Below, one piece after another: positions 10,327-61,439 of a stretch of 64,000 nt of DNA (positions within the stretch are counted from its first letter, which is position 1; each line of letters begins with the position of its first letter). The stretch covers positions 4,568,588 to 4,632,587 of the forward strand of contig JBNZDD010013698.1 in assembly GCA_050575255.1 (NCBI GenBank). Direction: 5' to 3'. The notes beneath the pieces are model-generated. The model saw nothing but the letters and a program-made list of their open reading frames with translations. It was not told the DNA's origin and made no database searches. The DNA is from Harriotta raleighana (lineage: Eukaryota). Made by a program: the position numbers and the translations under genes.

Positions 10327-10358
10327 CTCAGGGATGTTGTTATACATATAGAATATAA
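10327..10358 (-). CDS. Candidate exon VIFYMYNNIPE (phase 1 to 0)
   Basis: Strong GAG|gtaagc donor; AT-rich weak acceptor. Confidence 0.4.
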
Positions 10359-11330
10359 CTTATAATTAAAATATTATTATTTATTTGCTCGTTGTTTGTT
10401 TACTGACATATTTATTAGTTTTAAGAGCAGAAAAATATCAAAGAGCTATAGTAGTTTGACACAACACACTGTCATGAATGATAGTCTTCTCACTCATAGC
10501 AGCCCCTCAAAAATATCCCTCATGACAGCACAGATTCAGTGTGCCACATTTCTGCAATGTCAAGCAGGCACTTTGTTGATATGGATCATGATCTTGTGAC
10601 TCAATTCATAAATGCTTTGGCCTCATCATCCTGTACCACCAAATAAAACAATCATTTCCCTATTTAGAAAAGCCAATTAGCACTAAAGAAAATTAAATGT
10701 GCAGACTGCATCAAATTTGTGAGTCAAGCCTTTCACTTCTTTACAACTGGATCTCTTCAAATCTAGGCAGTGTGAATATTTATTTGGCGCTCAGTGAATT
10801 ATGGAAGAAGCTCCATTGAAAATGCCATAGTGCTTTCACTCATGATGATTTGAAGAGAGCAAGAAAAGGGAAAGGTGGAATGAGAGCAAAAGTTATACCT
10901 ATTAACTATCATACACCACACTTCTAGAAGGCTTTCAGACATACTTGAGTCTGATTTGCAGGTTGTGTTAACAACCTATGTGAAAATTAAGGGGTGGATT
11001 AACTGTTTATTGAGGAGTTTTTACAGGTATCCCTAGATATCAAATGAACAATGAAAAGGTGCTAGGTAATTTGTGAATTTTTCTCAGTGATTTTTAATAA
11101 TGTAATTAGGAGAAGCTTTATGCATTTGCACATTTTCACAATCATTGCTAACTTGACCCGCAAATTAGACTCCATTATCTGCTCTAATAGTGCTTTCAAA
11201 AAAAAATTAAGAGTCAAAAAAATTGTTCAATATCAAGATAAAAGAAGTCAGCGGATATTAAACAATATCTTTGACTATAATTATTTTAAAAATAGTATTT
11301 TCTTTCAAGCACTGTTAGGTCATATTATTA

Positions 11331-12140
11331 CAACAACAACAACAAAATTAGACTTGTATAGCGCCTTTCACGTCGGGAGGATGTCCCAAAGCGCTGAATA
11401 GTCAGGTCGAGACCTGAGCATGGGGGGTACTATTGGGGGTAGGAGGAGGGGGAAGGAGAGTGGGAAGAGTTAGGGGGGAACCGAAGGCGCGGTCAAAGAG
11501 GAAGGTCTTGAGACCGGCCTTGAAGGAGGAAAAGGAGGAAGCAAGGCGGAGGGACTGCAGGTTGGAGTTCCAAAGTTTGGGGGCAGAGAGGCTGAAAGCC
11601 CGGCCACTGATGGATGGGTGGTTAGGGCGGTGGACGCGGAGCAGGCCTGAGTCTGCTGAACGAAGGATGCGGGCAGGATGATAGGGAGACAGCAGGTCAG
11701 AGAGATAGGCGGGAGCAAGGCCGTGAATGGCCTTGAAGGTGAAGACAAGGATCTTGAAGTTGATCCGCTGGGGGATGGGAAGCCAGTGGAGGCGGGCGAG
11801 GGTGGGAGTGATGTGGTCGCGGAGTCTAGTGCAGGAGAGTACACGGGCTGCAGAATTCTGAATGATCTGCAGCCTGTGAAGGGAGGAGTTGGGAAGGTCA
11901 ACGAGAAGAGAGTTCCCATAGTCAAGCCTGGAAGTGATGAAGGCGTGAATTAGGGTTTTGGCGGCATGGCGGTTGAGGTAGTGGCGGAGTCTGGCGATGT
12001 TGTGGAGGTGATGGAAGGCTGTGCCAGTCATGGAGCGGATGTGGGGCAGGAAGGATAGTTCAGAGTCGAACAAGATGCCCAAATTCCTGTTTGGCTTTGA
12101 GAGGTGGAGTGAACAGCCTTGGACGCTTACGTCATTGAAT
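11331..12140 (-). mobile_element. Young 5'-truncated L2 with uninterrupted ORF2 C-terminus
   Basis: 226-aa open frame (11402-12082), 3' tail (aac)n on the + strand. Confidence 0.95.
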
Positions 12141-13781
12141 CTGAGACTATTTTAATTTGTGCTGCAGCTTGAATGTTATGGGATGAAGGGACCAAAGGAT
12201 CTGCATTTTTATATTGCTGTATCATGTCAGATCATCTCAAGGAGTTTCACACACATTCACTAGGAACTGTTAGGAATGCTTGCAGCAAATGCAGCAGCCA
12301 TTTTTTTCCACAAGCTGTGTTTAAACATAGCTTAATTCCTCCAACTTTACTAGCTTTGCTAGGCCTGCTTACAAATAGATAGTCACTGTACAAAAAAAGT
12401 CTAATTTGTTCCAACTCATATTGTCTTATAATTTCTGTCATGGAGAGAAAAAAAGAGAGAAAAAAGAAATTGACTCAAAAGTATAGATGAATTGTACATG
12501 GGGTAAATAGATATGTTGAAAAGGTAGAAAAGTGAGATTAAAGGCACCAAAAAGGGTGTACAATTGTTGAGCTAATTTAATAATATTAAGAATCCGTGCA
12601 TTTCATATGGCACTTTTCATATCTTCTAGATATCTCCNAAAGAGGAAGGTCTTGAGACCGGCCTTGAAGGAGGAAAAGGAGGAAGCAAGGCGGAGGGACT
12701 GCAGGTTGGAGTTCCAAAGTTTGGGGGCAGAGAGGCTGAAAGCCCGGCCACTGATGGATGGGTGGTTAGGGCGGTGGACGCGGAGCAGGCCTGAGTCTGC
12801 TGAACGAAGGATGCGGGCAGGATGATAGGGAGACAGCAGGTCAGAGAGATAGGCGGGAGCAAGGCCGTGAATGGCCTTGAAGGTGAAGACAAGGATCTTG
12901 AAGTTGATCCGCTGGGGGATGGGAAGCCAGTGGAGGCGGGCGAGGGTGGGAGTGATGTGGTCGCGGAGTCTAGTGCAGGAGAGTACACGGGCTGCAGAAT
13001 TCTGAATGATCTGCAGCCTGTGAAGGGAGGAGTTGGGAAGGTCAACGAGAAGAGAGTTCCCATAGTCAAGCCTGGAAGTGATGAAGGCGTGAATTAGGGT
13101 TTTGGCGGCATGGCGGTTGAGGTAGTGGCGGAGTCTGGCGATGTTGTGGAGGTGATGGAAGGCTGTGCCAGTCATGGAGCGGATGTGGGGCAGGAAGGAT
13201 AGTTCAGAGTCGAACAAGATGCCCAAATTCCTGTTTGGCTTTGAGAGGTGGAGTGAACAGCCTTGGACGCTTACGTCATTGAATCTGAGACTATTTTAAT
13301 TTGTGCTGCAGCTTGAATGTTATGGGATGAAGGGACCAAAGGATCTGCATTTTTATATTGCTGTATCATGTCAGATCATCTCAAGGAGTTTCACACACAT
13401 TCACTAGGAACTGTTAGGAATGCTTGCAGCAAATGCAGCAGCCATTTTTTTCCACAAGCTGTGTTTAAACATAGCTTAATTCCTCCAACTTTACTAGCTT
13501 TGCTAGGCCTGCTTACAAATAGATAGTCACTGTACAAAAAAAGTCTAATTTGTTCCAACTCATATTGTCTTATAATTTCTGTCATGGAGAGAAAAAAAGA
13601 GAGAAAAAAGAAATTGACTCAAAAGTATAGATGAATTGTACATGGGGTAAATAGATATGTTGAAAAGGTAGAAAAGTGAGATTAAAGGCACCAAAAAGGG
13701 TGTACAATTGTTGAGCTAATTTAATAATATTAAGAATCCGTGCATTTCATATGGCACTTTTCATATCTTCTAGATATCTCC
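11495..13781. repeat. Exact tandem duplication of 1143 bp (11495-12637 and 12639-13781) separated by one N
   Basis: Identical ORFs at offset 1144; N at 12638. Confidence 0.95.
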
Positions 13782-14022
13782 AAGTGCTTCACAGAATATG
13801 CTGTAAAGTGAATTGACTGTATATATGTGGGCAGAATGTGGCAGCCAATTGCACACAACAGTGTTTCACAAACAGTTGTGGATTGAAATTTTTTTTTTTT
13901 TTGAGCGTTTATTATCAGGCCTGTAGAGTAAGGAAACTGGTTCAAGGAACTGCCCTGTCTGGAATTGAACCCAGGTCTCTTGTGATAAAGCGATTGCTCT
14001 AACCACTGAGCTTCAGGACTCC
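13735..14022 (-). mobile_element. tRNA-headed SINE
   Basis: Same family. Confidence 0.9.
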
Positions 14023-14792
14023 ACACATTTCCTGTTAATAATAATCCCCTAATTTCCCTTAGCCTTTTTTTTTGCAAAACTTTCAAAATTTGTCCCTCTC
14101 TCTTGTGTGCCTTTTTCTCTTTTAGTGTACAACTTTACACTTAAAACAGACTTTAAATCTCTATGTGGGTGAATGGGCGATTGCAGGAGAAGGATTTAAA
14201 AACTGCAGAAAATCATCAAGAGAACTGGATGCGGGCTTCTCGTAAACTGCGTGAAAAGTATCACCATTTCTAAAACACTCCTTTGAAGGCTTTATTCTAT
14301 TTCTAAATGAAAACATAATTTATCATTAATAGCACAACAAACCAGTTTGGTAAAAGAATTTCTACAACATGCTATGTCAATTTCAAATCCCAAGCGATCC
14401 CTGGGCTGAATAAGGCTGTCAAGTGTAACTACGCAATGGGTTCAATGCTGCCCAATGGGTTCCCTTCTTCGCACAGTGCCTGACAACTAGTTGTAATTGA
14501 TCCAGTCAAGTCAAGCTTCAATGACATTATTTATATCAAAGAGAGCACATTGTTGAAAAATAGGTCATTGAGTGGCAACATTCCATGTAATCCAACGAAT
14601 GAAAGTTACAGAAATATACCCACCCTATAAAAATGTATACCTAATGTAAATCATTTAAAGCAGGGAATGGTTGTGCAAAGCTGGGATCAGTGACCATCAG
14701 ATAGTAATAATAATAATATGACTCAGATGGCTCAGTGAAAGGCATGCTGCAATGGGACTGCTTGAGTAAAGCAAAAGGTCAATGTCATTTAC

Positions 14793-14816
14793 CTGTGACT
14801 TTTGTGAGGCATTCAG
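14793..14816 (-). CDS. Candidate microexon PECLTKVT (phase 1 to 1)
   Basis: cttccttcag acceptor, CAG|gtaaat donor; TKVT matches the START C-terminal beta-strand. Confidence 0.55.
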
Positions 14817-16056
14817 CTGAAGGAAGTTTTATGAATTATTAATTGTTTTAATATTACATTTCGGCAATAATTTTAAAGGCATACATTAAATTGGTTGGGC
14901 ATGGGACAGATGCGACATTGCTATGGTTTATGAGGTTGAGGATGAGTTACAGTTGGTCTGAAATGTCACCTGCATCATCAACATCTATAAGCAGGGACCA
15001 AATAACACGATATGGCAGTCACAGATGATTTATCTGTGTGTTGTGCTCCTGAGACCCTTCTGAAACCGGTGTCCAAATGTACGGTTGTTTTGGCTGAAAT
15101 TGTACGATTTTCCCCCAAAAGGCCCAATTTTACCCATTTAATAGGAACACTTGAATTGTACAGAAGAAAAAAACACGTTGGAAAGGCAGCTGTGCACATC
15201 GGGTTAGAACTGGTGTAAGTGAGTGTGGGAAAAAGATGAAGCAGTGAAGTGAACAGTGCAGGTGAGATTCTGCTCCACTGCCCAAGTATAGGACCATTAG
15301 TTGGTACTTTTAAATCAGGACATTTTCACGGACAATTTATTTTCAGCTGCAGCAGCAGAAGAAGAGGAAACCAGTATCGAGGGATTGCTAGCCACAGCAC
15401 TCAAGCAGGTTTCCTGGGAGAGAAACATATTAAGAATACATTTTTACTTCAGATTTGGAAGGTTCAGAGTGCAGACCATCCAGATGTGAAGTGTAAATGT
15501 AAAACTTGAGTGTGAAGCTACAGGAAAAGATTCACATCTGCTTAAAGGGATCTGCAAAACGCTACCACCTTGATCTCCCATCATCTGGGGGGTGCTGAGT
15601 GTCTACTGCAAAATGGAGAGTTGTAATTTCAGGAAAATGCAGAGAAAGGAGCAAAGTTCATTAGAGCAGATGGTGGTGGCTTCTGCCGGGCTTCAAGGTG
15701 GAATATTTCATGGTCGGCCAGAAAGTGGCAGAGACTGCAACTGAAACACTGGAAAAGGAGAAAGTGCCAAGCTCCACTAGATTGTACAACAGACACCAGA
15801 TGTAGCTTTTCTGAAATTAAACAGTTGTGTGCAAATTAACTAAAATCTGTTGGTTTCTGTCATTATTTACTGTACTTGCATATTATTATTAACTATTATC
15901 AGCCAAGTCTTTCCTATAACTAAAGTACACAACAAAAACAAAATTATATTTGTATAGCGCCTTTCACATCGGGATGATGTTCCAAGGCTCTGGACAGTCA
16001 GCGTAAACACGTCTATGAGCCAACAATAAAGCAATACATGCTGTGTAAAGGCTTAC

Positions 16057-16144
16057 GTTTAGGTTTGACAACCAGAAATGAGCCAGCAAGAATCATACGG
16101 GTTCTTGTTGGGTTCCACCTTGCTACCTCATCAGGGAGAAAGTA
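16057..16144 (-). CDS. Candidate exon YFLPDEVARWNPTRTRMILAGSFLVVKPK (phase 0 to 1)
   Basis: cccattacag acceptor, gtaagc donor, 88 nt open. Confidence 0.65.
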
Positions 16145-16959
16145 CTGTAATGGGTATACTTGGTCAGTCCATAAGAGACATAAAGCTATTCCCTATCAAC
16201 ATAATGGAACGGGGGGTGAAAATGACATATTTTGTAAATAAGCACACTGGTTTTGTTGGCCATTTTACGGCACAATAATTTCCACATTACAGGAGTAAAA
16301 TCCTTAATTGGTCCTTATTAGCAAATGGAGTTCAGAGCAGTTATTTTCCTAATCAAATTCCGGTTCATAAGGTCGGTATAGATGAAGAACACCTTTTGGC
16401 CCATTTAGTCTTATTCCTCCAGAACACCACTCCTGCGGATTCATGGTTTTTACTATGTTGATAATTTGCAGATACTAATCTTGAAAGTGTTGCTCTAAGG
16501 CTATCATTATTTTCATTCTTTATAATGCCTACAATCACTTTTAGGGCACATATATATCCCTGTGTATCTCTTTAGCATGTATGCACTTGACTGCTTTGTA
16601 AATGATGTAATTATTGTAATAATGGCATTATTTACTGTACTTTCAATCAACCAACAACATAATAATAATCCCCTTATAGCTGGCAAAATGTCTTTTCAGT
16701 CAGAATGAACATCCCAAAGCACTCCACAGGATTTATTGTGAAGGGAGTGGCTGCGTGTTTTGGGGCAAAATACTGTCGAATGTACAACATCAACAATAAG
16801 CGGCAGTTGAGCAATTTGAACGTCCTCTCGATGTAAAATGTGTTATACAAATGTAAATTTATAATTTGCATGGCATATTTTTCACTAATTATATTTGCTA
16901 AAACTGCCTTTAATGAATTGACCCCATTATCAGAGTCTATGTTTTCAACCATCTTGTAC

Positions 16960-17005
16960 TGATTGACAATCGGGTAAACTCTCATGAAGCAACACAGTGA
17001 AATTC
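16960..17005 (-). CDS. Candidate exon (R)NFTVLLHESLPDCQS
   Basis: tttcccttggagagcag acceptor; RNFTV resembles the START RDFV motif; donor weak and uncertain. Confidence 0.45.
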
Positions 17006-17155
17006 CTGCTCTCCAAGGGAAATAGCTCAAATGACTAACAGAGTTGATTAGCAATTGTAAATCCAAATTTGTTTGTTATGTGTGCCGCATCGCAATAGGA
17101 TAAAAAGACGATGAGTTACCCAGTGTAACGAGTAGCAGAGGATTATAATTTGTTG

Positions 17156-17460
17156 AGTCCTGTAGATCAATGTTTAGAGCACTCACCTTGCAAGCGATAG
17201 GCCTGGGTTCGATTCCAGGCAGAGTGAAACCGTGGGCAAGTTTCCTTACCCCACATGCCTGATAATAATCCCTCAAAAAACAAATAATTAAGTGGTCATT
17301 TCATTCGACAGCTGTTTGTGAGTCACTGCTGTGCACAATTGGCCATCATGTTTCACCCACATAATATATAGTCAAATCACTTCACAATATATTCTGTGAA
17401 GCACATTAAGACGTCTATAAGACATGCACTATATCAAATGCAAGAATTATTATTATTAAC
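17156..17460 (+). mobile_element. tRNA-headed SINE
   Basis: Same family, with A/B boxes and tail. Confidence 0.9.
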
Positions 17461-17519
17461 ATTTCTAATGGGGAAATAGCCATGATATTGAAGGAGTGGC
17501 TAGTTTGACAACTTATCCA

Positions 17520-18290
17520 AGCAAGCACACTCTATCTCACCAAGCCAGTCAGAAACCTAGTTGTCTTGTTCAACCCTCAACTGTCCTTCCTCCCTCACAT
17601 CCGTGCCATGATCCACTCTGCCTTCCCCCACCTCTACAATATTGCTCGACTCCGCCACTGCCTCACCCCTCAGGCTGACCAAATCGTCACACTATGCCTT
17701 CAATATATCCAGGCTTGACTTGACTGTGCCAACACCCTGCTTGTCGGCCTTCCCAACTCCTCCATCCACAAGCTGCAGAACATTCAGAGTTATCCCGATT
17801 GTGCTCTCTCCTGTACCAGGCTCTGTGATCATATCACACCCACCCTCGCCCAATTCCACTGACTCCCCAGAGGATTGAGTTCAAAATTCTCGTGCTCATC
17901 TTCAAGGCCCTCCATGGTCTTGGCCCCTCCTCACTCTCTGCCCTGCTCACCCATTATCAACCTGTCTACTCCTTCCACTCGGCAGGCTCTGGCCTGTTTC
18001 ATGTTCCCTGCCTGGACTCTCCCACCATCGGCGGTCAGGCTTTCAGCCTCTCTGCCTCCACCCTCTGGAACTCCATCCCACATTCCCTTTGCCTCACTCT
18101 CTCTCTTGCTTCCTTCAAGACATGTCTCAAAACCCTCCTCTTCAATCGTGTCTTCGACCACCCTATCTACCATCATCCCTGATCCCAACTCCCCACCCCT
18201 ACCCATCCCATTTGAGTCCTAACCTCTGACTGTTCAGTACCTTGGGACATCATCTCGATGTGAAAGGCGATTTACAAATGTAATTTTACA
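17520..18290 (+). mobile_element. L2 3' fragment
   Basis: FKALHGL..SFKTCLKTLLF motifs and 3' tail. Confidence 0.9.
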
Positions 18291-18590
18291 TTGTATTTAT
18301 ATTGTATCCTAGGGGTGAATTATCAGCGTTTCACTGTACACAGAGTAAAGGAAAGCATGAATTCTGAAGGCAACATGGCATGCCCAAGTCAAAAGTTGCT
18401 AGTTATTGGTTGGTTGAATGACCCTATCCTCCAGTCTTGGGTGCTAAGTAACCAGAGTTCCTTGCAATGTTGTTCAGTGACGAGAACTCTTAATCTCTCC
18501 AAGGAGGTAGTCTAAGGTTCCCATACATGCCCAGCTGTGACTGGCTGAGTCACTTCCCACTAGCTGGAAGTTTCCAAGCAAGATGCTCAC

Positions 18591-18615
18591 CTCGTCAGGA
18601 ACATACGAGTACAAA
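18591..18615 (-). CDS. Candidate 25-nt microexon VCTRMFLT(R) (phase 1 to 2)
   Basis: cctgttcag acceptor, strong GAG|gtgagc donor. Confidence 0.5.
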
Positions 18616-19769
18616 CTGAACAGGCTCAAAATACAAATGTAAACTTTATAATGTTGGAATTCTGTAATTTCAGGCCATCAGTGTTTGAATAGATACATAA
18701 TGAGCATGAGGCTGAATACATCTCCCACATCGTTGCATCACGATGATAGTTCATTCCCAGCAAGAAAAAAACTTTTGCTTTGCTGGTTATAATGAAGTAG
18801 AAACTTGACCATGCTGGAGGGAGCGGGGAAGGCAGAAGCAAGAAAAAATATGGTGTTAAATAAGAGGAAAGTGTTCTACTGATTTAATACTTGGCTGCTC
18901 TCAACAAGATGTGCATTCATATCAGTGGAATTTAATAGGATGTTACACTCAGTGCACTTATGCTCTTAGTACTCGAGATAAATTTCAAAACCGCAACAAA
19001 GTGAGACATTGCTTTTACACTCTTGTTCCAGAGCTCTAATCAAGTAGAGTACTAAGTAGGCTGCACACTGATAGTCCTTATGGGAATTAGAAAAACAAGA
19101 ATGGAGGCATATAAACTTCATACTGTAGTACTCTCCAGATCATTTTAAGCACATTCAACAGAGTTTAAATCACAAACATACGAGTATATTATGCAACATG
19201 TGCAAACATGTGGGTTGGCTATTAATTCCATAATTAAGGGCACCTTTAATTCCCCTTAATTGTGAGCAAGCGATCGGGAAAAAACAGAGCAGCAGTGATC
19301 TGAAAGTAAGTACTGTACCTCACAGGAATATAGCTGATGTTTAGATCTGTCCAACCAATGGATACAAATGTTGTAGATTTGGATGATTTTGCAGTACTGT
19401 TTTTACAGGGTTCAAGCTATCAATAATTTTAATGGAGCAGAAACAATTGATGGGAAATACAATACAATGATTTCTTAGGAATTGCAATACATCATTAAAT
19501 CGGTACTACACTCCCATAAGGATTACAGTAATTTGTTTCGAGTTTTATTGATTTTTAAGCCTACTTCTTCAGACTCTTTCATAAATCAGGTACTTGCTAT
19601 TTTATGTCTGATGGAATTTGCTACCACTCAGTGTATCATAACAAGAAGGAAGTATGAAAATTTTTAATCGGGTCCAATTGCTACACCGCATTTGCAAACT
19701 GGGTTTGAAAGTGATTGCAATTTCCCATAAGCAATTTCTGCTTTGCAAAATTTGCTTTGAAATTCATAG

Positions 19770-20615
19770 CATGTAAATGGCGAAAAGAGATTTAGGTATC
19801 CAAGTACACAAATCACTAACACTTAGCAGAGGTACAAAAAATAATCACAAAGGCTAATGGGATGTTGACCTTTATCTCATGGGGGTTGAAAGACAAAAGT
19901 GAGGAGGTGATTCTTGAGTTCTACAGAGCCTTGATCAGACACCCACCTTTTACATTGGGCTGGGACGGAGTACAGTGCAGATTTGCCAAAATGATACTGG
20001 TGTTGAAATGGTTAAATTATGAAGATAAGTTGCCTAAACTTGGAGTCCTGTAACTCGGTGGTTAGAGCACTCGCCTTACAAGCGAGAGACCTGGGTTCAA
20101 TTCCAGGCAGGGTGAAACATTGGGCAAGTTTCCTTACTCCACTTGCCTGAAAATAATCCCTCAAATAACAATAGTGAATTGGTCATTTCAATCCACAGCT
20201 GTTTATGGGACACTGCTGTGCGCAATTGGCTGCTGCGTTTTGCCCACAAATAAAGTCAATTTACTTTACAGTATATTCTGTGAAGGAAATGCAAATGCAA
20301 GGATTATTATTATAAACTTGGTTTGTATTCCCTGGAGTTCAGAAGGTTGAGAGATGATCTTGTTAAGGTGTTTAAAATGATAAAGGAATTTAACAGGGAG
20401 GATTTAGAGAAACTATTTCCTCTGGTGAAAGAATCATGTATAAGGGGATCTTAAGAGTCTTAAAATTAGAGCTAGGCCAGGTAGAAGTGAAACCAGGATG
20501 AATTTTTCATACAAAAGGTTGTAGAAATCTATGATTCTCTCCCACAAAAGGCTGTGGATACTGAGTCAATGGGAATTTTCTAGTCCGATGTTGATAGATA
20601 CAGTAGACACTCGCC
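19770..20615 (+). mobile_element. CR1 3' fragment interrupted by a SINE
   Basis: EEVILEFYRALIR and LNYEDKL.KLG motifs; resumes after 20312. Confidence 0.85.
20042..20312 (+). mobile_element. Full-length tRNA-headed SINE with L2-like tail
   Basis: A box taactcggtgg, B box ggttcaattcc, body gggacactgctgtgcgcaattggctg, (tta)n tail. Confidence 0.9.
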
Positions 20616-20679
20616 GAACGATGGGGTTCGTTCCTGGAAAACAGCGCACTTGGTAAAATCGTATTCGGTAAGCGAACTG

Positions 20680-22312
20680 AACCACCTCCCTCCCACACTT
20701 CGTCTCCCTACCTAACATGCCTTCCACACCTTCGATCCCATCTCCCTATCCTCTGTCACAAAATCTATCTCCTCTATGAAGCTCACCACCTGCTCCCTGG
20801 ACCCCATCCCCACCCCTCTCCTCACCATCCAGCTCCACCTTCTAGCCCCATTAATCGGCATCACCATCAACCTGTCCCTTTCATCCGGCACCGTTCCCAC
20901 TCCCCTCAAAACTATCACTATCACCCCCATCCTAAAGAAACCTTCCCTTCATGCGTAGCAGCTCTCAAGCTACCAGCCCATCTCCAACCTCAGCGCCTTG
21001 GGACGTCCTCCTGACATGAAACGCGCTCTATAAGTGTAATTTTGTTGTTGTTGTTGTTGTTGTTCCTGTCCAAGGTTCCTGTCCAGTGGTTGCCTCCCAG
21101 CTCCATTCTTTCCTCACAACCCACTCACTCCATGAACATCTCCAATCGGGTTTCCATGCTGCCCACAGCACGGAGACTGCTCTGGTCACAAAAACATCCT
21201 GACCATTTGCGACCAGGGCTCTCTATGCCTCCTCTTCCTCCTCGAACTATCCTCTGCCTTTGACACTATGGAACATGCAATCCTCCACCACTGCCTCTCC
21301 TCCCTCCTCAACCTTCAAGGCTCTGACCTTGATTGGTTCCAGTGGTACACCTCACACTGCCTTCACGTTGTCTCCTCCAACGGCTTTTCCAGTCCCCGCA
21401 CAGTCACATGTGACATTCCCCAAGGCTCTGTCCTTGGCCCCCTCCTCTTCAACCTCTACATGTTTCCCCTCAGTGACATCATCCGCAGACATGGGGTAAA
21501 TTTCACATGTACGCGGATGACACCCAACTCCAGGACTACTGACTGCATAACTGTCCAACATTGAGTCCTGGACGAGAGATAACTTCCTCCAACTAAACGT
21601 CAACAAAACGGAGGCCCTCCTGATTGGCTTGCATCAAGCACTTTCGCACTTCCGCACCTCAGGCGCTGGCGACATCAGCATCCAAGGCTGCACTCTCAAA
21701 GCCAGTCAGAAATCTGGGCATCTTGTTTGACCCTGAACTGTCCTTCCTCTCCCAAATCCTCGCCATGACCTGTACTGCCTTCCACCACCTCCGCAACATA
21801 AACGCTCCTCTATGGGAACTCTCTCCTCGTCGGCCTTCCCAGCTCCTCCCTTCACAAGCTGCAGATTATTCAGAACTCTGCAGCTGGTGTACTCTACCGC
21901 ACTAGGCTCCGTGACCACATCACTCCCACCCTCGCCCGTCTTCACTGGCTCCCAATTCCCCAGAGGATCGGATTCATTTTCCTCATCCTCACTTTCAAAG
22001 GCCATTCACGGCCTTAACCCCAACTCTCTTTGACCTGCTGTCTCCCTATCAGCCTTCCAGTCCACTCCGCTCAGTGGCCTCTGGCCTGCTCCATGTCCCC
22101 TGCCCGAACTGCGCTATCATCGGTGGCCAGGATTTCAGCCTCTGCCCCCACACTCTGCTGCCCTCCTAACTATCCCCCGTTTCCTACTCTCCTTCCCCCC
22201 GCTCCTATACAGACCCTTCCCCATCTGCTCAGGTCCTGACCTAACTGTTCAGCACCTTGGGACATCCTCCCGACGTGAAAGGCGCTCTACAAATGTAATT
22301 TTGTTGTTGTTG
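20680..22312 (+). mobile_element. Longer degraded L2 (RT domain to 3' end) with a nested short L2 tail at about 20991-21062
   Basis: TTCSLDPIPT, PQGSVLGPLLF and LHWL motifs; (ttg)n tails. Confidence 0.9.
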
Positions 22313-23834: not shown

Positions 23835-24534
23835 CTGGAAACATGAAGCTGAATGTGTCTTTGTTTTGCTGTAAGCACAACAAGCGGCCACAATACCCAC
23901 ATAATCACAAAATTCCATTAAAGAGGCTTATTTATCTGAAAATGTTTTCAGTCGAGGCAGCATCTAAGCATTCAGAGAGTGTCTTTCTCACATTCTGAGA
24001 GTGTGAAAGGATCTGGAAGCATTCTGCAGCATTCTTTTATCACAAGTGAGGTATGGGTCCTCAGACTGCAGTGACCTTTCTCTGTGCCTGTAATTGCATT
24101 TGCTAATGAAACCAAGAATAGATATAACGCCATGTTACACAAATTAAATCTGTTAAATTATTAAACACACAGGGAGGATTCTGATCTCAAAGAATTTGTG
24201 ATTTCAAACCAAACTAATGGCCCTTGGGGGTAATATGTGGCACATGATTATGAAAAGTACAGAAAACATTTTGTCTTCTGAGAAAATCTGTGCTTAACAG
24301 AGCTTTGAGGTTGAACATATGGAGAACGGTGTCTTTTCTCGCTGTTCAGATTGTATTGATTTGTTGTTTTCCTAGTTGCTAAAACAATTTTTTTAAAAAC
24401 TTTTTTGCTTTATAAATTAATTTTAGAGCACGTTCTGGCGAGGAAAAGTAAATCTGTGTTTTCCGCTTCTTAGCAACAGAATTTCCTGGCCTGGCAAGTT
24501 TGAAGATTCCTCCTAAGACAAATTTAAAACAGAC

Positions 24535-24661
24535 CTCACTCATACTATCAATAGGCTCAATGCCTTTGTCAAAAGTAGTCTGTCTCTCCTTGAAAGGTGT
24601 AAGGGGTAGGGGGTCCATTATCAAGGTAACATCAATTGATTTCAAATATTTACAGACACTG
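24535..24661 (-). CDS. Candidate exon SVCKYLKSIDVTLIMDPLPLTPFKERQTTFDKGIEPIDSMSE (phase 2 to 0)
   Basis: Strong ttgtttgtttcctcccag acceptor (NAGNAG), GAG|gtctgt donor, lies within ORF 24379-24723. Confidence 0.65.
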
Positions 24662-25599
24662 CTGGGAGGAAACAAACAACAAACGACAATAGTCATGGAT
24701 TTCACAACAGTATAAGTCAACATACTTAATCCAAACTATGTACAGGCAATATTTTCATTTGCAAAGAAAAAATCCTAATTGTGTGATAAGAGAAAGAATC
24801 TGCATTTATTCATCTTCACAACAAGCTGCTGTATTCAGAGCAATATCAACACTCACTCGTAACCTCATGTGAGAAATCAGAATGATGGTTACTATTGATG
24901 TAGTTCATTGCAACACCTACAAGAATGCCAAGCAGAAAATGGCAAACTGCTGGAGGTGGCCACTTAACTGATAAAATGTCTGCAAACTTCTTTATATTGA
25001 TTTTCTGCTCATCAGGCCATCAAAAGCACACCAGTGAACACATCCAAAACACCCTTGGCTATAAGAAGTGAGTGCTCATGCACACAAAGCATGGCAATAT
25101 CACATAAACTATACCAATAGAAATATACAACACAGAGTAGTATAATTGCTGGATATGGTGGCGAAAAGAGGCTTGGCTACTTTGATCAGCTATCTGAAGG
25201 GCAGTTTACAGTGGAGCTTGCACCTTCCTCAGATAAGTCACGTCTTCCACAGTACATTATCACTATGTTTCTGCCATCTTCACAGTATTTCAGAACTCAT
25301 CATTCATGCCACGGGTATTCAGTTTAACATGTTTACTCAAGATCTATGAAACTGACTTTCTATCTCTAATAATCATAATACTGTACTTCAAAGAGTCCTA
25401 ATTATCCAAGTTAATGCATTGTAATGAATCACACAACTACTGATAACTTATTGTCCAACCAGAATTCAGTGCTCAAAATATACAGGTTACATAGCATTGC
25501 GCATAGCATTGTCCCTCGTCATGGAATGAATGACCAAATATTATTATTTTTTCAAGGAATCAGTACCAGCATGAACTAATCCGGCAATATTGTCAACTT

Positions 25600-26460
25600 C
25601 CATATATATGCAGTAGATATCAAACTCTATCTTTCTGCCTCCACCCTTGATTCCAGTACCACTACTATTCAAACAGACTGACTGTCGGACATCAAGTCCT
25701 GGATGAGAGCTAAGTTTCTACAATTGAATGTCAACAAGACAGAGGCCCTATTGATTGGCTCACTCCAGCGCCTCCGCACCTCAGGCACTGGCAGCATCAA
25801 CCTCCATGGTTGCACACTCCACCTCACCAAGCCAGTCAGGCACCCAGGTGTCTTGTTCGATCCTCCATTGTCTTTTCTCCCCACATCAATGCCATGACCT
25901 GCTCTGCTTTCCCTCACCTCCACAATTGCTCAACTCCAGCACTACCTCACCGCTCAGGCCGTTTGTAGTCTCATTCATGCCTTCATCACATACACGCTCG
26001 ACTATGTCAATTCCCTGCTTGTCAGCCTTCCCAACTCCTTCCTTCATAGGGTACAGATCATCCATAACTCTGCAGCCTGTGTCCTCTCCTGCACCAAGCT
26101 CTGCAATTCCATCTCCCCCATTCTCACCACGTACCACTGAATTCCCATCATTCGGAGGATTCAATTCAAGATACTGGTCCTCACCTTTAAAACCCTCCAT
26201 GGTCTTGCCTCACCGTATCTCTGTGACCTCCTAACCCCCAACCAACCTGTCCACTCCCTCCACTCAGCGGACTCTGGCCTGATCCTCGTCCCCTGACCAC
26301 CTGCCTCACCATCGGTGGGCAAACCTCCAACCACTCTCCCCTTCCCCTCCTTCCACCTTCCCAGATCCCTACCTCAGTTCGAGTCTGAAATACTGAATGT
26401 TGAGTTCCTTGGAACATCCTCCCTATATAAAAGGCACTATACAAATATTGTTGAATTATT
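25600..26460 (+). mobile_element. L2 3' fragment
   Basis: FLQLNVNKTEALLIG motif and 3' tail. Confidence 0.9.
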
Positions 26461-29400
26461 ATTTGTATCCTCTAACCACAATGCTGCAGAGGTGGTGTAA
26501 AGCCATGGTCATGGCGCAGAAATGGGTTTGAGAAACGATAGCTTTGGGTCAAACAAGACACCCAAGTTCCTGACTGGCTTGGTTAGGTGGAGTGTGGATA
26601 CACTTCTGATACCTGAAATTTCTCTTTGTTTTAGCCATAGCACCACTGTTTTAAAATATAAGATTAAACAGAATTTTAAAAATTCTTAAATTCATTTTTA
26701 ATTTGGAATAAAAAAAATCCAAATTGCATTTATATAGCGCTTTTCACGTCAGGAGGAAGTCCCATTGCCCTGTACAATCAAGTAGGGATCAGAGTGGGGG
26801 TGGGGGGTGGATTGGGGAAGGCAGATTTGCTAAAAAAAAACTATGGAAACCTCTCAAATTAAATTTTCCGATGTGCACAATCTTAAATTTTATGACAGTG
26901 ATCATTATTAATGAGAAACATTGCCATCCTTTGGATGAAACATTACTACTGAAATCCTGTCTTCCGGTTCAGACAATTAGAAAATTTTGAAGCATATTAG
27001 AAACAAAAAGATAAGTTTTTCCCCGTTGTCCTGGCAACAGTCCTCCAGATAAAATTAGTCATTCACTTCATGGCTATTAGTAGGACATTGCTGTACACAA
27101 TTGTGACTGTTGCATTTACTTAAAAAATACAGTCGCTACACTTATAGAGTAAATTCTGTGAAGCTTTTTGAGATGTTTTGCCTATATAAATGGTCAAATT
27201 AAAGGATTCTTAATTTAGGGATCGAATATTATGGTTTTAGAAACCCAGTCTTCCCTTTAGTGACAACTCAGTCAATTCAATAGTACAGATATTTTCTATC
27301 CTTTTATTTTGTATTACTGTATATGGAAGCTGCGTTGATAATATTACCACGAATGTTGCTTTGACTGGCAGGAGTTACTAAACCATATAATGCAATGGGC
27401 CTAAATTAACATACCTAGAATAGAAATTACAAGAACACTGGAGCTTTATAAATTAATTATTATATCTACGCATAATAATTAATCTCCTGGATACTGGCTA
27501 GCAGGAATTACTTAACCTGACAGTGTCAGAGATCTGATTGACAACAGTGCAGCTGCTGCTGTCTGATAATCTTAAATGCTTCAGCAATTGTGTTCATTTT
27601 GTTCTCTACCACTGTCAGGTTTCAACTCAACTATCCCACAAGGTTCATAATATTATTAGTGAAAAATATTCCAATAATCAGCAAAGAAAAATAATTTAAA
27701 GTCAAGGTTTGCATTGTTTAATTTAAGATTAATGTTAACCAGATTAAACCAGATAGATTTTCTCTGGAGTAACATGCAGTGTACTTATAACAAAAAAAAC
27801 TAGATAAGATCTGATATTCTGTATCATACCCCTATCCCTGTGGCGTTAACACATCAAAGCTATCAGCCTTGAAAATATTACCAGTTGATTTAAGAAAAAA
27901 CAGTATTAACCTGCATCTAACAATTATTAGATTGCTGACAGTTACAGCGAGTAATCCAATCTCTGTTTTTAGCTGACAAAGATGTCATCTGAATCCCTCA
28001 AATGGATTACTGTCACATAATGCATGGGCAGCATTACATAGCTTTGTACTCCTGAGACAAGACACTTTTGTAGGATCAATAGCAGTCACTGCCTCACTTT
28101 CTGCTACACTGAGAACAGGAAAACTCCATTTGTGAACCATCTTGCACCTGGGTTGTTTACTTTGATTTGAGATTAAACACTTCTGATTATTATGCTAAAT
28201 TATTACTCTACAGCATTACGTTAACACATATATTAGGTTAACTAGAAATATAGCATCCCATTAAATCAAAATCAGTTTTTGCTGCTTTGGATGAACATAA
28301 TATATAATATCTTAAATCATAGTAATTTCTATTGCATTCTATTAAGACAAAAATGACTTTCTGAACACAAATACAATAAGTTATATTATAAGTCTGTTAT
28401 ATAGGCATTGTACTGTACCAGGTTGAATTTCTTTTTAAATGGAAAGTACTATGCAGTATATTGATTTCCTGCATCAACTATTAGTCTTTATAACTTGAAC
28501 TTCATATCACTAAAATCATTGTGCTACTATCCCTTATTAATGCTGATATTTCCTTCTAATGACTTCTGGCAGATCTAAGTCACACTTTCTTATCAACGGA
28601 CTCAAAAGCAGGTCGCTGTCATGATGAGAAACCTGCTAATTAAAAAGAAGCTTCACGAGAGATCACAGTCGCCATAGAAACGATTGGCAAGAAAAACAGA
28701 GAGGTCTAGATTGTAAGGAACAAGAATACGGAGCATTTAAAAATATATCATATCAAAGTTGATTTTTGCGAGAGAAAAAAAATATTGTTGTCTTCTTTTT
28801 GAGAGTATAATCTCCTGGTAACACATCAGCAAATCCATGAAAGAATTTGTGCTTTAAAGAAAATATATAAGCAACAGAACTTTGTGGACACACTCTTGTT
28901 ATCTGGCTGTCTTTTCAACTCAAATAGAATCATGTGATGTGATGCCTCTCAGAGTCTGGTTAGTCTGAGGCTCGAAGCCAACACTGATCACCATCCAGCA
29001 AACAGAATGAGGGGTGAGCTCCAATTGGTACTGTATTTACCCAGCAGTAAGAAGGACTAATTTGGTTACTCGATCCATGACAGTTTGTGGGACACTGCTG
29101 TGCAATTGGCTGACGCGTTTCGCCCACAAAATATAGTCAATTCACTTTACAGTATATTCTGTGTAGTGGTTTGAGATGACTCGAAGACATGATAAGACGC
29201 TATATCAAATCCAAAGATTTTTATTGTTTTTATTTGACAATATTCTTTCATAGTCATTATTCTCATCTTTGGAACAGTCTGCAAGGTATTCAATGCAGAA
29301 CTCAAGAAATATCTAGGAACAAATGCCTCGGTATCCTAAGAGGCTGTGCCATTGAATAGTAAGATACTCAAAATTCCCCACAATCTTTTCATGTACCATC

Positions 29401-29535
29401 AAGAGAGAAACACCATGAGGATTTCCCACACAGAGAGAAGGAAATGGCAAGTGGGAGCATCCCCAGAAGAGAGATACACAGTAGATCCATATTGGTAAAA
29501 GGGCAGCATTGCAACAGGTTAAAGAAGCAAAAAAN

Positions 29536-29569
<34 letters not shown>

Positions 29570-29789
29570 GTCTCCTCAGGTTAGAAAGAACTAAAACTGT
29601 TCCCACTGCCAATACATATTTATTGTTCTGTGAATCAAACTGTAAAATATTGTGAGAAAGTCACAACTGAGCATAGGCTGGTCTTTCAATTTACGATTCG
29701 TTTAATAACAACTCCAATAAATCAGGCTGATAATATAAAGTCACTGAGCTATATTTATTGTATAGAAGTATAGTAGTGTAAGTACATAC

Positions 29790-29846
29790 TGAGATATTTT
29801 ATGAATGGGTTTCACACGGCTCCCGACTGTATCAGCATAATATAGC
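29790..29846 (-). CDS. Candidate exon LYYADTVGSRVKPIHKIS (phase 2 to 2)
   Basis: ttatttacacag acceptor, gtatgt donor, single open frame over the full 57 nt. Confidence 0.45.
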
Positions 29847-30445
29847 CTGTGTAAATAAGATTCAGTTGAAGAACACACAGAAGCAATGTGAAGTTAGCTT
29901 AGAATCCATCGTAAAAATATTTTATTAAATTTGTTTGTTTTGGTAATTACTATAATTAGAGCCATTTTTATTCAGTTTAACTAGATATACTGAGATATTT
30001 AATCAACACTTCCAATCCAAATTCTTTGCAGATCTGCTAAATGTCAAGTGTAATAATGATAATTAAAAAGGATTATTAAGCAGTACATAACTATTCTTTT
30101 CTGAAGCTCCCCCAAAAATCTCTATAGAGTTTGGTTTGCTGATAGCATGTACTCTGTTTTTCATAAACATTAAATGTGAACGAGATTAAGTATTGTCACA
30201 AAAGTTGATGAATAATTGCTCCCCTTTCTCTTCTCCCATGTGATTGATGTCTATTCAATGGTAATGGAAGCAGAGAGTAATTTATTTTGAAAGTGAAGGA
30301 ATGTAACGTATTACAGTATTATGTATAAAGTTTATTCAATAATGGTTGATTCCCTAAATTTTAATAAAACACAAATTTGCAATGCTTCACCATACATCCG
30401 ATGTGCACATCAGAGCTGCTTAATTGGCTATTTTGTTTTACATAC

Positions 30446-30483
30446 AAATGACATATCCAGTCCGGGCACATAAGAGCAGTTAC
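30446..30483 (-). CDS. Candidate exon VTALMCPDWICH (phase 0 to 2)
   Basis: aactttatag acceptor, gtatgt donor; phase bridges its neighbours. Confidence 0.35.
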
Positions 30484-31938
30484 CTATAAAGTTCTTTGAC
30501 ATACTTCAACGTTAAAGACGCTATATTAATTACACGGATAACACTAATAATCCTTGCATTTGATATAGTGCAGAAATTTGAAATGCGGCAGCCAATTGTG
30601 CATAGCAGTGTCCCACAAACAGTGGTGGATTAATAATGACCAATTAATTATTGATTTTTTCAAGGGATTATTATCTGGCGTGTGGAGTAAGAAAACTTGC
30701 TCATTCTGCCTGAAATTCCTGTGATCTTATGGTTTCTGAAATATTCTATGAATTTGCTGTACTTCCCTTGAAAATTATCTTCAAAGCTATTTGGAGTTTT
30801 CCGTTTGAAAATGCAAAACAAGATGCAAATATAACTGTGTCACTCCATCTAACTACCACATGTAACTGATCAAAAATATCTTAACAGTTCAAAATCAGGC
30901 TGCTTTTATATTTCCTGCCTTATCTTAGTGGGATGTTTTAAACTACTCCAGTTAATTCTCTGAATGGCATGAAACTCATTTGTAAACCTGAGAGAAAGTG
31001 ATTATCAAATATACAGTTGGTTTTCCTGCTCTCTTCCCCCTACCCCTCCCCTTAAGCCCTTTCCCCCCTTTTATCCCTGGCCCCCTCACTTCCACGACTG
31101 TTTGTGGGACACTGCTGTGCGCAATTTGGCTGCCGCATTTCACCCACAAATATACAGTCAATTTTCCTACTCTCCTTCCCCCTACCCCTCCCCCACTGCT
31201 CTGGCCCCTACCCTTTTCCCCCCTTTCTTCCCTCTGGCCCCTACCCTTTTCCCCACTTTCTTCCCTCTTCTTTTCTCCCTACCCCGACCCCTCCCCCACC
31301 CTGCTCTGGTCCCGACTTGGGACATTGTCGTATTCTGTAAAGCGCTTTGGGACGTTGATAAGATGTGGAAAGCGCTATATAAATGTAAGGATTATTATTA
31401 TTATTATCTAACTGACATGGGTTTCAGGAGTTGAGGGAATAATATTCCAATCACATGGCAAAATGATTTAAATTAAATCTTAGGCTGTTCAGTGAATCTC
31501 CACAGCAGTGTTTTAGCTGTGAGCGGATTTGGAAAGATTGGGTGCTAACTTGTGGCATATCTGAATGGTGTTTCTAAATCTTAAAAAAAGCAGGTGGGAA
31601 AAGCCAGTATTGGAAGTAGATGTGACAGTGGGGAAGAAAAAGATGTAGGAAGTCTTAGAAGAGAAAGAGGAGTTAACAGTAGGGCATATGATGGAGGAGA
31701 CTAGGGATGACTAGGATTACTTTATTACAAATGGGGAAATAACTTGCTGAACAATTAAAAATGTCACTGTAACTGTCATCCCCTAAATGATGTTACAGAT
31801 TCATTGCTCAGTTTAGCCAGCCATGACAGTGTTCCTAATTACAAGCAAATTATATTAGAATGTGAAAATAAAGTCATCAAGGTTATTCCTTATAAAAACA
31901 GCAAGAGCAGACAATCTGGAGCTGCAAAGCCTATTTAC

Positions 31939-31999
31939 CCCTCGAATTTCTGTAAGTCGATGAAATGATTGGATGTCCTCCCTCTCATGGTTGTCTATG
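31939..31999 (-). CDS. Candidate exon IDNHEREDIQSFHRLTEIRG (phase 2 to 0)
   Basis: ttctgtaccacag acceptor, GGG|gtaaat donor; the only open frame matches the previous exon's phase. Confidence 0.6.
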
Positions 32000-33717
32000 C
32001 TGTGGTACAGAAATTCAGACATTGGAGCGAAAATTATACAATTACAGTTTGAAAGTGATAAGTGCCGCAATACCCAGAAGGTTCCAGTATATGGTGTGAA
32101 ATAGGGCTCCATTTTCCGAGCCGCACCTTTTTGCACACAAAAATCTTTTTAAACAATCATTTGGAGTGAGCATAAAACATTGTTCACGTGACACATAATT
32201 GTACAATTACCCCTCTCCGCATCACTTGCCATTAGCTCAGGCATTCTGAAATCTTAGGTTGAAGGAAGGGATCAGATGCAATCAAGGCAGATTACTGTCC
32301 AGTTTCGTAACAACCTATTTTTCAATCCAATGGCTACAAATTAGGCCAAAAAAGGTGCATGTTATCGCTAACCAACCAGATATGTGTTAGTAATATTAAA
32401 GGAACACATTCTTTCCTGTTCTCTCTTTGCTCATTACTGTTCCCGTATATGACAACAAACAGGTGAGCGTAAGAATTCAAAATGATTAATCTGGTTATTG
32501 TGAATTTTCATCATTTTGCAGAGCAAGTCAGCCATAGAAACAAATTATACTGTCTTGAAAGATATATATATATATATAAACAACAACAAAATTCCACTTG
32601 GATAGCTCCTTTCACGTCAGATGAATGTCCCAAGGCATCACTTATATAAATATATATACAAGTGAAGAAAGTCAGCTACCAGTAAAGACTAGATTGCTGA
32701 CTAGCACAGAATTAGTGTTAAATTAACTGTTTATAAGTTCCTTGATATCCTAGTGTGTACAAGTCAAACCCAGCATTAGGCTAAACAGAAGACTACAGCA
32801 TCAAATCCCTATCTGTGAGGAGTTAATCAATCTCAGTTTGGGCAGAATATTTAGCTTGACTGCCGTGGATTAGGAAGGAATAAGTCGAGTAGGTTCCCAC
32901 TCCTGATCAACAGAGAGGATTGAATAAAGCAGGCCCTTCAATAGATTTCATTCCAGAATCTTCATATACCAGCTTCACATTATAACACCAAGCTGTTCTG
33001 AAAATGAGTCCAATGACTTGACTTGTACAAATCCTTCTAGTAACCCAGTGCAGCTGTTAATTAGTGGTTGTGAAATACTTCTTGGTGTCTGTCTTGAAAT
33101 TGATTACCATAAACCTGAACTTGGACTCTCTTAGCTTGCTTAGGCATATTTTCTGCATTTCATCCACAAAATATTCACTGTACGGTATATTTTGTGAAGC
33201 GCTTTGAGATATCTCAATGACGTGATGAGGCATTGTATCGAATGTAAGGATTATTGATAGTAATAATCATCCTTCCATTTGATGCAGTGTTTTACACGTC
33301 TTCTAGATGTCTCAAAGCGCTTCACAGAATACTGTCTACTGTAAAGTGAATTCACTGTACATATGTGGGTGAAACACGGCAGCCAATTACGCACAGCAGT
33401 GTCCCAAAAACAATCATTATTATATCAGAATCAGCTAGTTCATGAGCAGGTCGCCAGCCCTGTGAGCTGGGCAAAAAGGAACACAAGTCCATGACAGTGA
33501 AAAATAAAACAAATAGAATGAAAATTATGAATGACAGAAATGAAGAAGGAAGCAAATAAACCACATTTTTCAAAAATCATTTGGAATCACTCCACAAAAT
33601 ACAAAGGAAGAATTAGTATTGTACATCCATATCTACCACACACTAGCCATCTGCTTCCCAAACAATGTGGAGGAGTTTAGTTTCACATTTGACTGCCTAC
33701 GATAAACACAATCTTAC

Positions 33718-33752
33718 ATGCTTTTTACAAAGTGTAACGCTGCCCCCACATC
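33718..33752 (-). CDS. Candidate exon DVGAALHFVKS (phase 0 to 2)
   Basis: tttttttctcag acceptor, CAT|gtaaga donor. Confidence 0.6.
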
Positions 33753-35258
33753 CTGAGAAAAAAAATCTTATGTGAGCTGAAGACACCAGCAGAGCAAACT
33801 GGCAGCAATTTGCAGCCTTTGCCAGATCTTCTCTCATTATTTATTGCAACTGACTCAATAAATCTCACAGACTCTGGTAAATCTGGTAACACCTCTAAAC
33901 ATCAGAACAATTTACAATATATGTATTGTCATCTTGATCCCTGTATAACCATTAGTTCAACTGTTTAAAAGAAATTATTTTGAGCCATTACAGCTCGCTG
34001 TTTAACACTGCATTTTTTGTTGAAAAAATATACTGTACATTGTACTATTTATTTCTAGTAATAAATAATAATAGTAGTAATGGCAGAGAAATACTTTTGC
34101 GACCTCTCGCTATATATAACAATAGTAGAACCCTAACCTAACCAGATCTTCTTTCTAACAGATCAGCTGTTAGAAGCAGATGCCATAGTGAGCCTGTCTT
34201 GTCTGGCCACACATTGCCTGGGAAAACTGCTTTGTGGGAGATAGGTGGGAACCATCAGGTACCCTCTCTTCAGCCCATCTGTTTTGTCAATACAGGTTTC
34301 TAAAAAGAGCAGCAGAAACACACTATAATATCAAACATTCTGTGCTTGAATTCTATATTTGAATTTGCAAAACGCTGGCTATAGAAATTGTGTATCAACA
34401 ATTCTACTACAGTATTAAGAATTGTACCACAATTGTACCAAAATAAAAATTTACAACCAGTCAGATGGACCACAATGGTCTTTTTCAGTCCTTTACATTT
34501 TCATTTGTTGCTTTATAGAATGTGTTAAGCCAATGCCCAATAAAATCTTCAATACTACATTACCAATAGTTTAAAAAAGGGTTTTAAATGCAGTATGGTC
34601 AAGTAATAAGCAACTGACACTGGTTCTAAGTCAGAACTGAAAGCTTGTGAAGTATTGCTTCAATAATAACACTGACGTAGATGGCTCAACATTCAGCATG
34701 CCACTTTGATGCAAGCTTTAAACTGTACCATTATGTCAGCCACTTCATTTTATGTGCCATAAATACTGAACATATACATTTCTGGGATTCTTATATCAAA
34801 TGTGAAAATGAGAGATTTGGCTTCTCACTTCAAAGCACATTCACTGAATGTTTTAAAGTCCATTCTGTCTCCAGTTAGAGGTTTTAGTAACTCAATAACA
34901 ATCTGCTAACTGGTCTGAGCATAGACTCCTGATGCATTAAATCACTTCCTCTTCACTCTTATTATTTGGAATTTGTGATCCAACCACAACTACTTAATGG
35001 AAAATCACAATCCTGGGGATTGTTATGTATTTTAATATTCAGCAGTACTGAACGATAGGCAGAACTATAAAATTTGATCCAAGATATTTGTGTAAAACAT
35101 TTGGTAAAAATATTTCAGAGAGCACACTCAGTAGTAAATCTCCTCAGCTTGATTATTTGTGAATCAGGATGCAGGCTGGCCTGAAGTGTTGATTTCCAGT
35201 GCTCTCAATGGAATTGCTTCTGGATGCACCTGTAACTCACATCATCAAAATAACTCAC

Positions 35259-35287
35259 TAGTCCATAAGATCCAAAATTGTGGGAAT
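35259..35287 (-). CDS. Candidate microexon DSHNFGSYGL (phase 1 to 0)
   Basis: cttccctcatag acceptor; two in-frame gtgagt donors 18 nt apart. Confidence 0.5.
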
Positions 35288-41258: not shown

Positions 41259-41302
41259 CTGTACCTTTACATGAAAGCAGAACAGAAGACTGGTAGCACC
41301 GG

Positions 41303-61422: not shown

Positions 61423-61439
61423 GTAATCAATAATTAAGA

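Follow-up and report, generated by a model that had tools for sequence, protein, structure and literature searches.

The window, by which we mean the whole 64,000-nucleotide stretch of Harriotta raleighana DNA analyzed here, lies (1..64000, minus strand) within the roughly 296-kb intron 1 of an EXT1-type host gene, with some 187 kb separating the window's right end from the end of host exon 1 and some 45 kb separating its left end from the start of host exon 2. Against human EXT1, host exon 1 gives a match at E 1.7e-139; it joins exon 2 as in EXT1, and the host shares with EXT1 a long first exon, a first intron in phase 2 and downstream GT64 exons. Three EXT1-type genes occur here, and exon 1 of the host is 63-67% identical to those of the other two; these adjoin MED30, whereas a ZNF512-family exon lies downstream of the host instead. 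The window also holds a chain of twelve small exons, which sits on the host's strand and wholly within this one intron, between host exons 1 and 2, and no second exon-1 copy was found between those two host exons in 664 kb. Exon 12 and host exon 2 are on gap-free sequence; the link to exons 1-11 crosses single-N joins at 12638 and 29535, within the span of the chain, and further exons could be missing at these joins. The nesting was invisible to the earlier note on this DNA. The exons, an alternative boundary and candidate flanking exons are as follows.

35259..35287, minus strand: exon 1, 29 nt, phase 1 to 0
35366, minus strand: alternative acceptor for exon 1, which would give 108 nt, phase 0 to 0
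33718..33752, minus strand: exon 2, 35 nt, phase 0 to 2, strong sites
31939..31999, minus strand: exon 3, 61 nt, phase 2 to 0
30446..30483, minus strand: exon 4, 38 nt, phase 0 to 2, weak in the splice-plus-coding model
29790..29846, minus strand: exon 5, 57 nt, phase 2 to 2
24535..24661, minus strand: exon 6, 127 nt, phase 2 to 0, the largest exon
23819..23834, minus strand: exon 7, 16 nt, phase 0 to 1
18591..18615, minus strand: exon 8, 25 nt, phase 1 to 2
16960..17005, minus strand: exon 9, 46 nt, phase 2 to 0, the weakest link, its donor locally third of four
16057..16144, minus strand: exon 10, 88 nt, phase 0 to 1
14793..14816, minus strand: exon 11, 24 nt, phase 1 to 1
10327..10358, minus strand: exon 12, 32 nt, phase 1 to 0, weak acceptor, strong donor
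6984..9244, minus strand: hand-picked candidate continuation exons (9244-9226, 9148-9107, 8531-8484, or 7045-6984)
39541..40416, minus strand: candidate upstream exons (40416-40361, 39841-, 39604-39541)

The earlier note had described twelve minus-strand GT-AG exons that join in phase, and these are present: all twelve are preceded by AG and followed by GT, and joining them by coordinates reproduces its peptide (578 nt, 192 codons). One frame of the joined chain has no stop, against 14 and 17 in the other two. The chain has neither a start nor a stop codon and is therefore an internal fragment. Its introns measure 599-5203 nt. Self-BLAST masks 39% of the region as repeats, and none of the exons overlaps them. 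The description "microexon-built" was overstated; at the customary cut-offs for microexons, 3 of the 12 exons are at most 27 nt long and 8 are shorter than 51 nt.

The chain lies on the host's strand and may instead represent alternative exons of the host, with EXT exon 1 (which ends in phase 2) splicing into the chain to give a truncated exostosin anchor with a new domain. The candidate exon at 39604-39541 runs from phase 2 to 0 and so matches the 35366 acceptor, and the chain has no separate CpG island, which would also suit this arrangement. Such a phase match arises one time in three, however, and the intervening stretch has 211 kb of intron and a 2,259-N gap. An isoform of this kind is not known for EXT1, and we consider this explanation very improbable.

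Several coding statistics of the chain exceed those of random open segments and of AG..GT pseudo-exon sets. Among 3000 random open segments 6 had an amino-acid composition score as high, and among 3000 pseudo-exon sets 70 did; for Asp+Glu content the counts were 22 and 42 of 3000, for CpG retention 83 and 162 of 3000, and purine asymmetry by codon position was equaled in 40 of 2000 nulls, all of these being mutually non-independent statistics on exons that had been picked in the earlier note. All but one of the 12 chosen acceptors and all but two of the 12 chosen donors are the best sites locally, so the phase was mostly not tuned by shifting exon ends. When the chain was optimized freely, 6 of the 12 exons were recovered, 5 of them in the same frame.

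Other measures are closer to background. The Markov coding score was matched by 167 of 2000 nulls (-0.02 per codon, versus 0.18 for real AT-rich exons), synonymous codon use by 500 of 3000 and GC by 963 of 3000. Branch points were found for 7 of the 12 exons against a background of 52%, and median splice scores fell below those of dynein exons (0.8 versus 2.9 and 2.4 versus 3.2), controls that are biased upward. In a crude splice-plus-coding model the chain totals 26, compared with 41-188 for the best 12-exon chains arising by chance in 25-kb windows. That the chain exceeds chance is thus shown only in part.

These results bear on two ways in which the chain may fall short of a working gene. 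The first is that some or all of it is no gene but a chain of pseudo-exons, in-phase AG..GT stretches of ordinary intron chosen partly under the guidance of a START template. Exon-like candidates are dense in the span and symmetric between strands (32 on the plus strand, 35 on the minus), and chance chains outscore the one described here. On the other side, composition, acidic residues and CpG retention exceed the pseudo-exon nulls and the boundaries are the best locally; moreover, weak exons belong to the chain and stronger pseudo-exons do not, a choice not expected of a search for the best-looking sites. We regard this explanation as doubtful, if a serious contender. The second is a decayed relic of a once-functional gene that keeps its coding flavor while drifting and has lost some neighboring exons. 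Coding scores intermediate between intron and real exons, several weak splice sites and terminal exons that are not fixed are consistent with a relic, as is the lack of a match in annotated shark proteomes; the run of 192 codons over 12 exons with no stop or frameshift argues against it, and we find it improbable.

Homologues of the chain were sought widely. None of its pieces had one in protein collections that include many cartilaginous-fish proteomes; conserved proteins of this genome are 87-95% identical to those of Callorhinchus. The large searches took pieces of only 20-42 residues and were therefore of low sensitivity. A protein word search with exon 6 yielded no candidate, and its three matches among 1.84 billion representatives were rejected as repeat-rich bacterial Ig-like proteins sharing 4-6 short stretches; atlas matches to exon 6, at 0.77-0.78 only, were also set aside. 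Seven exon pieces stacked as one alignment, which made a poor profile and hence a weak search, gave 240 candidates with none at E up to 10, and metagenome scans gave 487 and 602 pattern matches, none confirmed. In the PDB, exon 10 had one WD-repeat match at E 0.27, which we rejected, and exon 6 had none. Within the genome, exons 6 and 10 each have a single match, no second copy or internal repeat of the chain was found in 464 kb, and no paralogue turned up in the 200 kb surrounding the other two EXT1-type genes (23.5 bits at best, versus 22.7-28.5 for shuffles). An atlas search with the 146-codon frame at 2451-2888 gave no usable match. Pfam searches of flanking open frames (samples of 251 of 567, 92 of the 105 listed, with 13 frames at the host 5' end omitted, and 145 of 181 tested) yielded exostosin domains, a C2H2 finger and a retroelement endonuclease, besides five hits below threshold, and nothing else. 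Among 88 SAM-domain matches there was no neighbor on the contig, and our literature search found no paper on this locus.

The lack of a homologue in any search run agrees with pseudo-exons. It would also fit the orthologue of a named, fast-evolving, small-exon vertebrate gene, for instance of a meiotic, sperm or ciliary family, that is too divergent to be found with exon-sized queries. The low sensitivity of short pieces speaks for this idea, but Pfam returned no family for 15 single exon pieces at E up to 10 and the PDB no noteworthy match, and we think it quite unlikely.

The earlier note had also assigned the chain to a divergent START-like domain, and here the sequence tests of the joined peptide gave no signal at all. 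A StAR/RhoGAP profile scored it at -2.5 bits; a bacterial and eukaryotic START profile did not match it (hhalign probability 0.1); and a START profile that included this genome's STARD10-, ACOT- and STARD9-like pieces gave -1.2 bits, a score reached by 173 of 1000 shuffles. An hhalign result for this last profile had one aligned column and was ignored as an artefact. Our own START profiles pick up all the other START genes that were sampled in this genome, and held-out START exons, 33-68 aa long, score 11-27 bits. Against 81 START sequences the mean pairwise z of the joined peptide was 0.09. The locus is not among the 19 START matches across the genome, and START profiles run on 18,944 open frames of the region gave nothing above E 1.2.

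Chance chains match the argument from motifs in START order. By eye, the C-terminal half has an Arg, a Gly-aromatic strand, a 'kv' strand and an Ile-Pro in the order of START (PF01852; STARD1-15; SRPBCC/helix-grip), a forced alignment brings these features into register, and the fragment length fits (about 190-230 aa). Unlike START, the chain does not keep the tryptophans and the RDF motif and has, by eye, about 15-18 extra residues in its middle; its exon pattern also differs, by eye, from those of the STARD10-, ACOT- and STARD9-like genes of this genome. On START columns 116-192, 34 of 60 shuffles scored as high as the twelve exons in forced alignment, and 2 and 4 of 60 did so once hand-picked extra exons were added. 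Template-driven pseudo-exon chains, picked to fit START, outscored the chain in 12 of 12 control windows, reaching 0.3-15.3 bits on the C-terminal START columns versus -3.5 for the best variant here, which favors a pseudo-exon origin. The chain encodes 192 residues, compared with about 200-210 for START, which ends in a long helix; the chain may have either of two different helix-like continuations.

START domains form a helix-grip fold, a curved nine-stranded sheet around a C-terminal helix, and retain it at low identity (PMC13525633), so the sequence results do not refute the START reading. We regard a START fold for the chain product as unlikely. Were a fold to be named, our best guess would be a helix-grip (START-like) carrier of a hydrophobic ligand, and a highly divergent one; this is a minority expectation even given a real gene, and it is without statistical support. 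It is similarly doubtful that the chain would represent a profile-invisible helix-grip lipid-carrier subfamily, unannotated, encoded by a dozen or more tiny same-strand exons in intron 1 of an EXT1 paralogue kept in cartilaginous fishes, a subfamily lost from mammals together with its host.

Our preferred reading, held at about even confidence, is that the chain is probably real and forms the middle part of a live protein-coding gene, a fast-evolving orphan nested in its host. The open frame, protein-like composition, locally best sites, repeat-free exons and nesting count for a live gene; the chance chains, Markov score, codon use, GC, branch points, splice scores and want of a homologue count against it, as does a start or stop exon that is not fixed. 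The earlier note's wider claim of an unannotated gene is thus favored by composition, open frame and splice sites but weakened by chance chains from control intron windows that score as well, and we consider an unannotated multi-exon coding gene with no known relative to be moderately supported by these sequence features. A same-strand coding gene with at least 12 small exons over 25 kb is less usual among nested genes. In mammals, nested genes favor long 5' introns and occur in either orientation, show less conservation than their hosts and are often expressed in testis (PMC11694760). The chain resembles vertebrate intron-nested genes in occupying the largest, first intron of a long host, in its same orientation, which is common, in its apparently poor conservation and in having no CpG island of its own; it differs from the catalogues, which are mammalian and rich in non-coding RNAs (PMC11694760). 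Outside repeats, CpG islands occur only at the host 5' end, with none unmasked between the chain and the host promoter.

Such a nested gene would have its own promoter, active in restricted tissues, and its transcript would be assembled from very small exons. The promoter may be a non-CpG element within the host intron, firing where the host is quiet or where the host's first intron has already been removed; testis is the usual site of nested-gene expression. Host transcripts would skip the small, moderately weak exons, and the nested transcript would include them. The product may be a soluble alpha/beta globular domain.

The current value of the chain is that of a well-specified lead, with expression and fold both putative. 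If real, it would encode a vertebrate protein for which billions of sequences offer no detectable relative, and it would exemplify a type of gene that annotation misses, with tiny exons, on the host's strand and with no CpG island. It would also pose a splicing question that can be tested, namely by what means host transcripts leave out twelve in-phase exons that are included in the nested transcript. If the product were START-folded as well, it would extend the closed set of 15 mammalian START proteins.

The twelve minus-strand exons of the proposed gene (window 35287 to 10327, exon 1 rightmost) measure, in order, 29, 35, 61, 38, 57, 127, 16, 25, 46, 88, 24, and 32 nt. Each is preceded by AG and followed by GT, and the introns between them range from 599 to 5203 nt. 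Every peptide piece of the earlier note was found by six-frame translation of the window. Joined by their coordinates, the exons form 578 nt with one open frame (14 and 17 stops in the other two). Neither a start nor a stop codon was found in the twelve-exon chain, and extra candidate exons lie on either side without a unique order among them. Two minus-strand open frames outside repeats just downstream, 2451-2888 (146 codons; no match in Pfam or the atlas) and 931-1188 (86 codons; no Pfam match), may be sites of further exons.

The window holds many decayed LINE and SINE copies (22 direct-repeat families), and self-comparison masks 39% of 264 kb; none of the twelve exons falls in a repeat. 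A perfect 1,143-nt duplicate (11495-12637 and 12639-13781, the copies separated by a single N at 12638), which carries a LINE-like frame twice, is almost certainly an overlap left where scaffolds were joined and not a true tandem repeat.

The chain is nested on the host strand inside an intron of about 296 kb. In the 1.10-Gb source assembly (G000; the window is C13698:4568588-4632587), whose conserved proteins are 87-95% identical to those of Callorhinchus milii and less so to those of sharks and rays, which suggests a chimaera-type species that is not C. milii, an exostosin first exon of 339 codons (E 1.7e-139 to human EXT1) lies on the minus strand 187 kb right of the window, and a second exostosin exon lies on the same strand 45 kb to its left. 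With its phase-2 end, the first exon can be joined in frame to the other, and no second exon-1 copy lies between them; the two exons therefore flank the chain as parts of one gene. Gap-free sequence links exon 12 of the chain (10358-10327) to host exon 2. The chain itself is interrupted by single-N joins at 12638 and 29535, and farther up the intron comes a gap of 2,259 Ns. Elsewhere in this intron (L009:636-1232, minus strand) is a 199-codon open frame outside repeats, without a Pfam match. The assembly has three EXT1-type genes including the host, whose exon 1 is 63-67% identical to those of the other two.

EXT1-type genes and adjoining MED30-like genes in the source assembly
C13698:4.41-4.82 Mb, minus strand: EXT1-type gene (host), first intron ~296 kb, gene spanning >400 kb
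C13608:268-366 kb: EXT1-type gene, first intron ~95 kb
C13665:1.748-1.760 Mb: EXT1-type gene, first intron ~9 kb
C13608:423-457 kb: MED30-like gene, adjoining the EXT1-type gene of C13608
C13665:1.765-1.768 Mb: MED30-like gene, adjoining the EXT1-type gene of C13665

MED30 is a single gene in humans. Because MED30 stands beside the other two EXT1-type genes and the exon found downstream of the host is of the ZNF512 family, the host is probably a third genome-duplication paralogue and not the EXT1 orthologue, in view of the paralogon relationships.

Several properties of the chain resemble those of coding sequence. Its amino-acid composition is protein-like (as high in 6 of 3000 random open segments and 70 of 3000 AG..GT pseudo-exon sets), Asp+Glu reach 11% vs 6% (22 and 42 of 3000), and CpG dinucleotides are preserved (83 and 162 of 3000). 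Codon position 1 shows a purine excess (40 of 2000 nulls; G1-G2, 111 of 2000), and the splice sites used are the best in their vicinity for 11 of the 12 acceptors and 10 of the 12 donors. Other measures speak against a gene. Synonymous codon use is intermediate, with intron at one end and real exons at the other (500 of 3000). Under a Markov coding model trained on the assembly, 184 of 2000 nulls scored as high; with GC matched, the count was 167 of 2000, and the bits per codon were -0.02 for the chain, -0.11 for intron, and 0.18 for a set of 16 real AT-rich exons. Branch-point motifs are about as common as in the background, and the two strands of the span carry exon-like candidates at equal density. 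By dynamic programming, every one of the 50 window-strand controls yielded an in-phase chain of 12 exons, with scores of 41-188. The best such chain in the gene span scored 90 and the one proposed 26; the former takes in six of the proposed exons, five in the same frame. The model is a crude one: windows that contain real host exons score just slightly above others. Its scores thus show that sequence statistics cannot decide the matter, not that the chain is false. We consider the odds of a live gene to be roughly even; a chance chain is a distinctly weaker prospect, and a relic is improbable.

The earlier note had proposed a START-like lipid-binding domain from ordered motifs, and no sequence test supported this identity. 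Three START profiles were built in scripts. Against a StAR/RhoGAP profile (120 sequences), the joined peptide scored -2.5 bits, the shuffle mean. A second profile, built from START domains of bacteria (58) and animals (18), did not match it, while scoring six of six held-out START exons of the assembly at 11-27 bits and detecting START exons at each of the five loci examined. With the addition of pieces from the assembly that we take to be STARD10-, ACOT- and STARD9-like, the score was -1.2 bits (173 of 1000 shuffles as high), and pairwise z against 81 START sequences averaged 0.09. Forced alignment to the C-terminal START columns did place the motifs in register, with 34 of 60 shuffles scoring as high (2 of 60 only with hand-picked extra exons). 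In all 12 control windows, pseudo-exons picked to fit the same columns did better, at 0.3-15.3 bits vs -3.5 here; motif order alone thus carries no weight. START domains are reported to keep their fold despite low identity (PMC13525633), so the joined protein may have a helix-grip fold, at odds well below even given a real gene. The assembly also holds two StAR-like genes (C13732:24.603 Mb, C13471:0.643 Mb) and two that are presumably STARD10-like (C13673:0.921 Mb, C13446:0.318 Mb). Among 301 sampled bacterial genomes of one phylum, 81 carried START genes, which in most cases formed adjacent tandem pairs in small genomes.

Searches for homologues centered on exon 6 (24661-24535), which had no match in a word search of 5.8 billion proteins and no usable match in the atlas; three matches among 1.84 billion representatives were all repeat artefacts. 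A stacked-exon query confirmed none of 240 candidates, and no paralogue of the chain was seen in the assembly. When the same collection was queried with START as a control, it yielded proteins from C. milii as well as from over a dozen sharks and rays. The lineage is thus well covered, and a missing homologue points to fast divergence, missed annotation, or no gene.

The anatomy and nesting of the chain were observed directly. A tissue-restricted transcript may be driven by an intronic, non-CpG promoter; CpG islands outside repeats occur at the host 5' end only. The CpG-rich sequence at 42250-43000 belongs to a repeat and is no promoter island. The host pre-mRNA would skip the small exons with their middling sites, and the nested transcript would include them. 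The encoded domain would be globular and soluble; as a best guess, it may be a divergent carrier of a hydrophobic ligand. In mammals, nested genes are reported to favor long 5' introns, to lie about as often in one orientation as in the other, to be less conserved than their hosts, and often to be expressed in testis (PMC11694760).

No paper on the locus was found in the literature searched, which took in article texts and few subscription journals; an annotation table in a supplement could list it. While the headline START claim is without support, the chain is a well-specified lead that is cheap to test. Nested genes are a known kind, and the chain, if real, would be a nested orphan gene.
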